Below, piece by piece: positions 52,248-56,305 of a stretch of 64,000 nucleotides of DNA (its first letter is position 1; each line of letters begins with the position of its first letter). The notes beneath the pieces are model-generated. The model saw nothing but the letters and a program-made list of their open reading frames with translations. It was not told the origin of the DNA and did not search any database. Position numbers and translations under genes: made by a program. The stretch covers positions 832,001 through 896,000 of the forward strand of contig CM000430.1 in NCBI GenBank assembly GCA_000165345.1, written 5' to 3'.

Positions 52248-53399
52248 ATGCATTCTTTAGGGAATTCTGGAGATATTCCAGATATGGCTAAAAATAGCGT
52301 GCTATTACATAGCGAACCAATTGATGATAATAGTAGGAAAGTGTTGGGTCCGTCTAAAAATAAATTTACAGATATTACAATCAAAGAATACTGTAAGGAT
52401 ATTAAAAAGATGGGATTTCAAGCTACAAATATTGGAAGAGCAATTGATGAGATTAATAAAATGTTAAGTTGGCGTTTATCAGATGAAAATATTGAACCAG
52501 ATGAAGTAGAACCATATAATGATTTAGAATATAGAAAAAATGTGAAATGTACAATTTGGTTAAGTTTTACATCAAATATGATTTCATCAGGACTTCGTGA
52601 GATATTTGTATATTTAGCAAAGAATAAGTTGATTGATGTAATTGTGACATCAGCTGGTGGCATTGAGGAGGATTTTATTAAGGTTTTAGGGAGTACATTT
52701 CTTGGTGAATTTAATCTTAAAGGTAGTGAACTTAGAAATAAAGGTTGGAATCGAATTGGAAATCTACTAGTTCCAAATCAAAATTATGTAGATTTTGAGG
52801 AATGGATCCAGCCTCTATTTGATGAAATGCTTGAAATGCAAAATAAAGATTCCATAAACTGGACACCTTCAAAAATGATCCATTTTCTGGGTGAGAAAAT
52901 TAATCATGATGAATCACTCTATTATTGGTGCTACAAAAATAATATACCAGTTTTCTGTCCAGGAATTACTGATGGATCATTAGGTGATAACTTATTTTTC
53001 CACTCATATAGGAACCCAGTAAGTTGATTTTGTTCATTTAGAACTAAATTATATATAAATATTCATTTTATTGCTATTTAGGGTCTCAAAGTTGATGTTG
53101 TTGAAGATATTAGAAGAATTAATGATATCGCTCTTAATATTAAAAAGAGTGGAATCATTATTCTTGGAGGAGGAATTCCTAAACACCATACTTGTAATGC
53201 AAATTTAATGAGAAATGGGGCTGACTATGCTGTTTACATATCAAGTGCAACTGAATTTGATGGTTCTGATTCTGGAGCTTCTCCTGATGAAGCTGTCAGC
53301 TGGGGAAAAATCAAAGCTGAAAGCACACCTGTAAAGGTTTTCGGAGATGCAACAATTATTTTCCCGCTTATTTTTTATTCTACTTTTCTTGATACATAG
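52248..53399 (+). CDS. DHPS: deoxyhypusine synthase, 2 exons (52248..53018, 53082..53399)
   Basis: Near-colinear match to DHS ([65 protein letters not shown]; exon 2 [50 protein letters not shown]). Intron GTAAGT..TATTTAG, phase 0. Confidence 0.9.
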
Positions 53400-53675
53400 A
53401 TTTTTATATACTTATAAATAAATAAATTTTTTTTTTTAAGTTATTTGGGCTTAAATGCTCTAAATACGTCAATTGTACATTTTCCAAATTCGTCAATAAA
53501 TCTATAAATAATTATTTTATATATTTATGTATGTATAAATATATATTGAAATAAAAACAAGTGTTATGAAATTTTAACAAAATTGTATATGCAAAAATAA
53601 GTGGCCTGAATTGCATGTAATTTATTACACAAATAGGCGGGAAATCCCAAATAATTGCATATATGTTATTACAAC

Positions 53676-54614
53676 TTACCTGTATCTAATAAACTTAATT
53701 TTAGTATTTTCATCCCCAGGTTGTGTCCATCTTGTTTCAATAACTTTACCAGGTAGATTTTCACTTTCACGAGTCATACAAATTGCAGTAACAAGTTGAT
53801 TATTGGTTTTTTCATGTTTAAATTCAATAAACTCAACTCTATTTCTCCATATTCCCACCTCAGGGTTCTTTTCTATAAAAATTTCACCTGACAAATCCCA
53901 GTTCAGAATTTGTGTAGGTCCAAAAAATGGCTCTATCTTAATAACAAGTAATTTTTCATTAGATATTTCAACTTTTAAGGTGTAGCTGCCTTTATTAATT
54001 ACTTTTCTTTTTAACATTCCAACACCAATTTTCTGTAAGAACTGCTCCATATTATCAGATTCCTCACTAATAATCTGCCAGCTTCCAACTAAATCCTGAA
54101 TACATTCTATTTTATTTGATTTTTTTTTTTAAAGTGTTATAAAAAATTGGATTTTTTTATTTTTAACTTACTTTGATTCTTTTCATTTCTTTTCTTTAAG
54201 TCATCTAACTTTTCTATTACATTTTGATTATTTTTTTTGTAATTTATAAAATTTTCTTTAAATCCTACATTACTGAGTAATTTGGGAAGCTCCTCTTTAA
54301 CTAAGACTAAATTAATAATATAATATTCAATAATTTCTCTAATAAGCTTGGAGGATAAGAATTAGATGTATAAGAAACTTACAATTTGGATTTCCTTCGA
54401 TAGGTACATACAAATTATAATCGTCATTCTCCAATAGCTGGGAATAACAAAACATAATTTCATCATATAGTGTACTAGTACCATCCAAACTAATTTGGCC
54501 ATCTCCAGGAGATTCAACTGATGTAATACTTATCTCAAAATGTTCTCCAAAGTCATAGGTCCTAAACTCGCTATAATCCTCCTTCTGTTTTAAAAATGTA
54601 AAGCAATCACACAT
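53676..54614 (-). CDS. FABP/lipocalin (calycin) domain protein with about 120-aa N-terminal extension, 3 exons (54614..54383, 54306..54172, 54106..53676); a possible further 3' exon is unresolved
   Basis: The C-terminal region GSWQIISEESDNMEQFLQKIGVGMLKRK..TLKVEI matches the FABP N-terminal signature [26 protein letters not shown] and continues with a beta-rich 120 aa. The upstream exons join in frame through GTAAGT..AATTTAG and GTAAGT..AAAATAG introns, with phases 1 then 1. Confidence 0.5.
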
Positions 54615-55258
54615 GTATCTCTATTAATAAATTTATTCCAGAATAATCAGTGGTATAGGCTTATTTTAAAGTATTTGTTGTCATTACTCAGTATGGCAAT
54701 TAAAATTAGCCTGAATAAAAGGTATATATATCTGACACTTATAAATTTATTTTCTTTTTTTTAAGAAAAAAAAAAAGATGCCTGTTTTCTACCTATTTAT
54801 TCCAATTTTATAGATTGCATGAACTTTCCTTTTTCTAAAAAGCCGTTTGGCGCCTAAAGTGCATTATTTTTTATATTATTTTCTTTTATAAAGTTTGAAC
54901 TCGAGAATATGGGAAAAAAGAGGGAAGGAGGGGGGTGAGAAAAATATATATAAATATTAGAGAATAGAGATGAGAAAGGATAAAGAGCAATGACGTGAAA
55001 TTAGGTCAGCACTCATCAAGTACAAAAAAAATGAAATGAAGATTTATAACTTTCTAATTAAAAAAAAAAAATTTAAAATCAACTTTATATACAATTATTT
55101 TTTGACCAGTTTTTAAAATAATTTTAGACTTCCGCCGCCCCCCAATTAAAAAAATTACATGTAATTTAGTATGCCGCCTAATTTATTTTATATACAATAT
55201 TATTTATTTTATTAATGCCGGTACTCGTGTCTCTTTGTCTAAATTTTTAAAAACGGGT

Positions 55259-55285
55259 GGCGCCAACCATCTTTTTGGCGGCAAC
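55259..55285. promoter_or_regulatory. GGTGGCGCCAACC followed by TTTTGGCGGCAA (E2F-like pair)
   Basis: Divergent promoter between the FABP-like(-) and EF1B(+) genes. CCGCCGCCCCCC lies at 55133 and GCCGCCTAAT at 55172. Confidence 0.5.
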
Positions 55286-55561: not shown

Positions 55562-56305
55562 ATGGATAAATTCGGAGACATCTCAACTGATGCAGGAAGA
55601 AAGAAGCTTAATGACTATCTTTCAACAAGATCTTATATGAATGGAGTTTCACCAACACAAGATGATGTAGAAGCATTATATATGATAATGAAGGCTGGTG
55701 GATTCTGTGATTTCCAACACATTTGCAGATATGTATCTCATATTCAAAGCTTTAGTGCTATGGAAAGAGATGCATTCCCAGGTGAATCATTCAAAAATAA
55801 ACTAAAGAATAAGGGATGTACTAAGGAAAAGAAGTCAAACGATGATGACTTTGACTTATTTGGAGATGATGATGAAGATATGGAAGCAGCCAAGAAAGCT
55901 ATGGAAGCAAAGAAGAAGGCATTACAAGATAAGAAAGCAAAAGAAAAACCAGCAAGCAAATCTTCTCTTGTTTTGGATATCAAGCCATCATCATTAGATG
56001 TTGACTTAGATGCTGTGGCTAAAATGATCAGAGCATTAAAAATTGAAGGTGTTGAATTCTCAGAGGGTGAAAAGAAAGTTCCTGTAGCTTTTGGTCTTTT
56101 CAAATTACAAATGGGTGCAACTATTATTGATGATTTAGTCAATACTCAAGACATTGTTGATTCAATTGAGACTCTCGGTATGACTGATGAACAAAAGAAG
56201 AAGTTCTCTGAGAAGGATGATGCATGTGGTGATGATGATGAAGAAGAAGAGGAAGAGTATGGACTTGTCCAATCTTGTGAGATTGTCAGTTTCAATAAGC
56301 TTTAA
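55562..56305 (+). CDS. EEF1B: translation elongation factor 1-beta (eEF1B guanine-nucleotide exchange subunit)
   Basis: N-terminal FGDISTDAGRKKLNDYLSTRSY, acidic linker, and the C-terminal exchange domain SLVLDIKP..LKIEGVEFSEGEKKVPVAFGLFKLQ..SIETLG..VQSCEIVSFNKL. Confidence 0.9.
   Translation: MDKFGDISTDAGRKKLNDYLSTRSYMNGVSPTQDDVEALYMIMKAGGFCDFQHICRYVSHIQSFSAMERDAFPGESFKNKLKNKGCTKEKKSNDDDFDLFGDDDEDMEAAKKAMEAKKKALQDKKAKEKPASKSSLVLDIKPSSLDVDLDAVAKMIRALKIEGVEFSEGEKKVPVAFGLFKLQMGATIIDDLVNTQDIVDSIETLGMTDEQKKKFSEKDDACGDDDEEEEEEYGLVQSCEIVSFNKL

Follow-up and report, generated by a model that had tools for sequence, protein, structure and literature searches.

We analyzed a minus-strand gene in a 64-kb window of the Cryptosporidium parvum genome (i.e., the whole stretch of DNA under study, positions 832,001 to 896,000 of contig CM000430.1 in GenBank assembly GCA_000165345.1; G+C content, 27%). 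We consider it likely that this locus is a four-exon fatty acid-binding protein (FABP)-like gene, the product of which carries a barrel of the intracellular lipid-binding protein (iLBP) type behind a genus-specific N-terminal region and acts as a cytosolic or membrane-proximal lipid chaperone. Coordinates are positions within the window, and residue numbers refer to the model of 284 amino acids (aa) unless stated otherwise. The gene, its name, and the four-exon model are already public; since the gene has been annotated and the exon model deposited, the finding is not new. The four-exon translation exactly matches NCBI records QOY42834.1/WRK31187.1, one of which is named "fatty acid binding protein [Cryptosporidium parvum]" and the other "hypothetical protein CPATCC_000514."

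Four open segments running from 54614 to 53441 on the minus strand are linked by canonical introns into a coding sequence of 855 nucleotides (nt) (Table 1). The ATG at 54614 has an in-frame TAG three codons 5' of it, and exon 1 ends at the donor CCAAATT/GTAAGT (the slash marks the splice site). Exon 2 is bounded by the acceptor AATTTAG/ and the donor ATCAAA/GTAAGT, and exon 3 opens at 54106 after AAAATAG/. A sequence-only reading of the window had joined 54614..54383, 54306..54172, and a segment starting at 54106 in frame through GT-AG introns into a 265-aa product, and all of these coordinates were confirmed. Read alone, exons 1 to 3 do end after 265 aa, at a TAA (53676-53678). This TAA sits within the GTAAGT hexamer starting at 53679, which is the donor of intron 3. 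The further short 3' exon that the same reading had suspected was found at 53501..53441; it is part of the deposited protein and is conserved in three other species. The acceptor in front of it is TTATTTATAG/ (final intron base, 53502), and its translation is FIDEFGKCTIDVFRAFKPK followed by the stop codon.

The original Iowa II annotation of 2004 (XP_626576.1, 124 aa) corresponds merely to the open reading frame (ORF) 53676..54050. This ORF begins at Met143, inside exon 3 and 12 to 13 codons past the GSW of strand A, so the FABP-like signature does lie 5' of the first Met of the longest ORF, as had been claimed. Because exon 3 has no Met ahead of strand A and is separated from exon 2 by a gap of just 65 nt, and because introns, gene order, and codon-position patterns are conserved among species (see below), the data support the view that exons 1 to 4 form a single spliced gene. 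The in-frame exons, the exact deposited match, and the conserved introns thus bear out the multiexon gene proposed earlier. Cryptosporidium genes are mostly intronless, and three introns are many for a coding sequence of 855 nt. Intron 3 breaks strand I about 19 codons ahead of the stop codon. In animals, the canonical four-exon FABP gene has its last intron in strand I as well, some 16 codons ahead of the stop codon, and the two positions may correspond.

Public models disagree at two tandem acceptors. At intron 1, a second in-frame acceptor lies 6 nt further downstream and would shift the start of exon 2 to 54300; public models of C. hominis and C. tyzzeri adopt it (NPNFKEE), and those of C. 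parvum (284 aa) and C. meleagridis adopt 54306. At intron 2, a second in-frame acceptor 18 nt further downstream would shift the start of exon 3 to 54088, as in two 276-aa public models, giving NQ/IGSW. The peptide added by the 54106 acceptor (i.e., KC[IV]Q[DG]L) is kept in C. parvum, C. canis, and C. felis, the three species of the comparison that live in the intestine, and was modeled as a helix with a predicted local distance difference test (pLDDT) score of about 91. C. serpentis reads DFVEDL at this position, and the peptide is not conserved there. On the basis of the conservation in the three intestinal species and the confidently modeled helix, 54106 is the favored acceptor of intron 2. 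Our analysis thus backs the 284-aa four-exon model for C. parvum annotation.

We compared the locus with its orthologous counterparts from C. felis, C. canis, and C. serpentis. The gene order (V-ATPase subunit H, EF-1beta, the FABP-like gene, and deoxyhypusine synthase) is common to these loci, and the three introns occur at matching positions in all four species, gastric C. serpentis included. The annotated stop codon is made by the intron 3 donor in C. felis, C. canis, and C. serpentis likewise, and their public models end there (265, 268, and 263 aa, respectively). Past that stop, all three loci carry a conserved exon 4 that is absent from the public models (LIDNDEKCKIEVFRAFKPK in C. felis, FIDEGGRCTMDIFRAFKPKLS in C. 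canis, and LFENGQQIMDIFRAFKPQK in C. serpentis), with the shared peptide [IM][DE][IV]FRAFKP[KQ]. This peptide aligns with the final strand of homologues from chromerids and gregarines. The C. meleagridis public model (259 aa) also ends at IRYR. The public models of C. canis, C. felis, C. meleagridis, and C. serpentis are thus one exon short and lack the last strand of the barrel. A second C. canis public model (287 aa) appears to read through introns.

Substitutions were in excess at third codon positions in all four exons, relative to both C. canis and C. felis. Against C. canis, the values at codon positions 1/2/3 were 0.26/0.25/0.49 for exon 1 and 0.11/0.11/0.58 for exon 4. The pattern was weaker against the more distant C. 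serpentis, where exon 2 was the exception. Exon 2 is the least conserved exon (36 to 44% aa identity to C. canis and C. felis), and the third position is still the most variable one in both comparisons; the aa identity of exon 3 to C. felis and C. canis is 68 to 73%.

The C-terminal 155 to 160 aa or so are predicted, with good support, to adopt the iLBP (FABP/CRABP/CRBP) fold, i.e., a ten-stranded barrel with a helix-turn-helix lid. A phmmer search of the Protein Data Bank (PDB) with the single sequence gave 118 matches at E <= 10, and all 60 of the matches listed were iLBPs; the best match (E = 3.9e-4; residues 125 to 190) is marginal. The iLBP-type N-terminal signature recognized in the sequence-only reading is therefore real. 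When a profile of 13 barrel sequences was used instead, the PDB matches included CRABP2 (E = 3e-7) and I-FABP (E = 3e-6), and 60 of 60 listed matches (of 144 at E <= 1) were iLBPs. Through this profile, the domain shows significant sequence homology to the iLBP family. The hhalign probabilities were 94.5% to CRABP2 and 89.7% to FABP4. An AlphaFold2 model of the domain based on the 13-sequence alignment (pLDDT, 89.4; predicted template modeling score, 0.84) contains a short helix, strand A, two helices, and nine more strands (i.e., bA-aI-aII-bB..bJ). The ten antiparallel strands and the helix-turn-helix between strands A and B of this predicted structure are those of the iLBP fold; the eight-stranded barrel with a C-terminal helix that characterizes the usually secreted lipocalins was not seen. 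Strand J, encoded by exon 4, was modeled with high confidence. In a Foldseek search, the domain model matched CRABP2 (3e-6) as well as Echinococcus and locust FABPs, with a target-normalized template modeling score of up to 0.81 (locust).

The barrel shares its fold with animal iLBPs such as CRABP2, FABP4, and Caenorhabditis elegans LBP-8, but it is only 14 to 20% identical to them. Animal iLBPs consist of one domain of about 130 aa, whereas the C. parvum barrel is about 20 residues longer, carries a two-residue insertion between strand A and helix I (between G-x-W and S-[DE]-N), and is preceded by an extension of about 120 aa.

We searched 1.84 billion representative proteins with a three-sequence profile (E <= 1e-3); the queries for this search and for structure prediction were the C. 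hominis protein (98% identical) and the domain alignment. Only 18 matches were obtained. Beyond Cryptosporidium fragments, they comprised C. serpentis, Vitrella brassicaformis, Chromera velia, the blastogregarine Siedleckia, the gregarine Trichotokara, Euglena gracilis, and further assemblies. No animal FABP was among the matches, the search yielded no homologue from coccidia or haemosporidia, and no Pfam domain covers the barrel in the matched relatives. On sequence grounds, the barrel is a member of a small family without a Pfam entry that spans Cryptosporidium, gregarines, the chromerids Vitrella and Chromera, and Euglena. Within Apicomplexa, relatives were found solely in Cryptosporidium and gregarines, which agrees with the earlier remark that FABP-type proteins are rare in this phylum. 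No FABP candidate was reported in the Toxoplasma genome (PMC6199492), and the Plasmodium falciparum lipocalin PfLCN (PF3D7_0925900) is the other lipid-binding barrel of the calycin superfamily described in an apicomplexan (bioRxiv 10.1101/2020.02.13.947507).

The proteins of V. brassicaformis (CEM33100.1/A0A0G4GRD9) and C. velia (Cvel_8142), together with the Siedleckia and Trichotokara transcripts, belong to the same barrel family (E = 1e-7 to 1e-4 with the three-sequence profile) and are 21 to 26% identical to the C. parvum barrel. They have the invariant positions (G, W, S, KR, N, R, ET, and W in the 13-sequence alignment) and the conserved last strand in common with the Cryptosporidium barrel, and the family-specific invariant residues ETR, RS[DE], and KR.x.N are common across Myzozoa. 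As in Cryptosporidium, these proteins mostly place the barrel at the C terminus behind an extension, and several have Cys-containing N termini. A literature search found no paper describing an iLBP-fold family of Myzozoa and Euglena. The Euglena gracilis relative (1,013 aa) contains several tandem copies of the FABP-like barrel, and a distant relative of 1,444 aa combines several tandem barrels with two C-terminal FYVE zinc fingers (Pfam E = 6e-19). FYVE is a phosphoinositide-binding module, and its presence hints at membrane-associated roles of the barrel family in other protists.

The N-terminal region in front of the barrel has no recognizable family or solved relative, which supports the sequence-only reading: residues 1 to 123 matched nothing in Pfam, nor anything in the PDB even at E <= 10. 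Among the representative proteins, they matched only Cryptosporidium fragments and are thus genus restricted. The roughly 120 aa are acidic (net charge, -10), are conserved and under coding constraint, and are spliced alike in four Cryptosporidium species. An N-terminal signal peptide or membrane span was rejected on hydropathy, since the region contains no hydrophobic stretch (maximum Kyte-Doolittle mean over 19 residues, 0.61). The sequence-only reading had regarded the fusion architecture as unusual. This view does not hold for the family: an N-terminal extension of unrelated sequence precedes the barrel in most full-length chromerid and gregarine relatives, so the "fusion" is the normal layout of the family rather than an oddity of one gene. 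No homology to the Cryptosporidium extension was detectable in those of chromerids and gregarines. By eye, the Cryptosporidium segment YNLYVPIEGNPN resembles the gregarine motif [FY][DN]PxFPLIxxPG, and the N-terminal C-x-C of Cryptosporidium resembles that of the gregarines. A hidden Markov model (HMM) of the gregarine motif region was searched against the Cryptosporidium N termini, and the reverse search was also made, with shuffled decoys as controls. Because the HMM scores were no better than those of the decoys in either direction, we dropped N-terminal homology outside the genus. A Cys occurs within positions 2 to 6 in 8 of 16 family proteins (i.e., all four Cryptosporidium models, Vitrella, Siedleckia, and two more relatives).

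By analogy with animal iLBPs, a single hydrophobic ligand would lie in the barrel, with a fatty acid as the simplest option. Candidate contacts for its head group are R235, E246-T247, R248, and R279: R235 and E246-T247 are invariant in the family, R248 is nearly so, and most members also retain R279 of the final strand. The carboxylate triad of iLBPs, for which Arg106/Arg126/Tyr128 of FABP4 and Arg111/Arg132/Tyr134 of CRABP2 served as references, might be matched in strand order by R248 (strand H) and R279-x-F281 (strand J). The invariant K155-R156 of helix II would touch membranes during ligand transfer, in a manner comparable to collisional transfer by animal FABPs, and possible S-acylation of C2 and C4 (MCDC) would tether the protein to a membrane. 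Cryptosporidium relies on salvaged lipids. Given this dependence, the protein would traffic scavenged fatty acids as a cytosolic or membrane-proximal lipid chaperone. The lipid-handling proteins of Cryptosporidium are candidate drug targets.

Several observations weigh against such a reading. The sequence-only reading had called the N terminus of the lipid-binding domain "unmistakable"; as to Pfam, this was too strong, given that the domain alone scores 18 bits against Pfam PF00061 (E = 0.0034; only domain residues 6 to 44, i.e., strand A and the helices), below the gathering score of 23 bits. The full-length protein gives no PF00061 line, and none of 12 relatives scores with this family. The PROSITE FABP signature PS00214 matched none of 16 family members, while the FABP4 and CRABP2 controls did match; this outcome is indicative only. 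The sequence likeness to animal iLBPs is confined mainly to strands A through E. A forced global hhalign alignment, the sole full-length one, disagrees with the strand-order match and places the C-terminal TRVY of FABP4 on ETRW with zero confidence in the C-terminal half, so that any correspondence of the conserved arginines to the R/R/Y triad is tentative. S-acylation is possible, as judged solely from the N-terminal cysteines, and half of the family N termini lack them or are unreliable. A full-length structure prediction from three sequences (pLDDT, 38.5) was unusable for the N-terminal region, and a literature search for the Cryptosporidium protein found no experimental paper.

The same fold also occurs in UnaG, Oplophorus luciferase (NanoLuc), and the dinoflagellate luciferase domain, and so a barrel of this type might instead hold another ligand (e.g., a retinoid-like molecule, a tetrapyrrole or bilin, or a sterol-like molecule) or serve as an enzyme or sensor as these proteins do. 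We regard this alternative as improbable: we saw no positive sign of any particular alternative ligand, the conserved arginines fit a carboxylate head group, and fatty acid handling is the simplest need of a lipid-salvaging parasite. A still less probable alternative concerns the origin of the domain, namely, that it was horizontally acquired from an animal host and then fused to a resident Cryptosporidium gene. Cryptosporidium inhabits the gut epithelium of animals, a tissue with abundant FABPs, and the best PDB matches of the barrel are animal proteins. Intron 3, in strand I, may also lie near the site of the last intron in animal FABP genes. Moreover, iLBPs have been described as originating in the animal lineage once it had parted from fungi and plants (PMC3796463). 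The nearest relatives, however, are in Vitrella, Chromera, gregarines, and Euglena rather than in animals, the identity to animal iLBPs is low, and the invariant ETR, RS[DE], and KR.x.N residues are common across Myzozoa. These features, the lack of a significant animal FABP match in the protein search, and the synteny conserved across the genus up to gastric C. serpentis make a recent transfer from animals unlikely. The gene looks vertically inherited within Myzozoa, as judged by these comparisons, and not recently acquired from an animal host; an ancient transfer into a myzozoan ancestor is conceivable.

The animal-origin view (PMC3796463) is mildly challenged by an iLBP-fold family that can be detected by sequence in Myzozoa and Euglena; calycin-superfamily signatures had been counted in alveolates before (bioRxiv 10.1101/2020.02.13.947507). 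A bolder proposal, which we put forward tentatively and hold to be rather doubtful, is that the Cryptosporidium protein is the sole pathogen-borne member of an undescribed iLBP-type clade that lacks a Pfam entry and spans Myzozoa and Euglena, and that the FABP-type fold family is not an animal invention. Under this proposal, the protist versions would be lipid chaperones tethered to membranes by acylation of N-terminal Cys or, in one distant multirepeat relative, by FYVE fingers.

Table 1. Exons and introns of the C. parvum FABP-like gene (window positions) and stretches holding the missed exon in the fetched loci of three other species (locus positions)
Feature	Position	Strand	Description
Exon 1	54383..54614	-	aa 1-77 and first base of codon 78; N terminus MCDCFTFL..., conserved segment NLYVPIEGNPN
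Intron 1	54307..54382	-	76 nt, GT..AG
Exon 2	54172..54306	-	aa 78-123; K/E/N-rich linker with ELPKLLSN motif
Intron 2	54107..54171	-	65 nt, GT..AG
Exon 3	53680..54106	-	aa 124-265; pre-barrel helix, strand A, helix-turn-helix, strands B to most of I
Intron 3	53502..53679	-	178 nt, GTAAGT..TATAG, phase 2; donor makes apparent TAA stop
Exon 4	53441..53501	-	last base of codon 265, aa 266-284, TAA; end of strand I and strand J
Missed-exon stretch, L001	3927-4087		C. felis model
Missed-exon stretch, L002	3972-4235		C. canis model
Missed-exon stretch, L004	3944-4303		C. serpentis model

On its 3' side, the FABP-like gene converges with a deoxyhypusine synthase gene, which is split between 53027 and 53208 and has its last exon at 53208-53399 on the plus strand (Pfam DS, E = 3e-25). 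Only 41 nt separate the end of that gene (53399) from the stop codon of the FABP-like gene (53441-53443, minus strand); therefore, the two 3' untranslated regions either overlap or are extremely short. On the 5' side, the divergent region between the ATG at 54614 and that of EF-1beta at 55562 contains GGCGCC palindromes at 54846-54854 (TTTGGCGCC) and 55258-55265 (TGGCGCCA). GGCGCC, which is E2F-like and may be an upstream motif of Cryptosporidium, occurs 16 times in the whole window.
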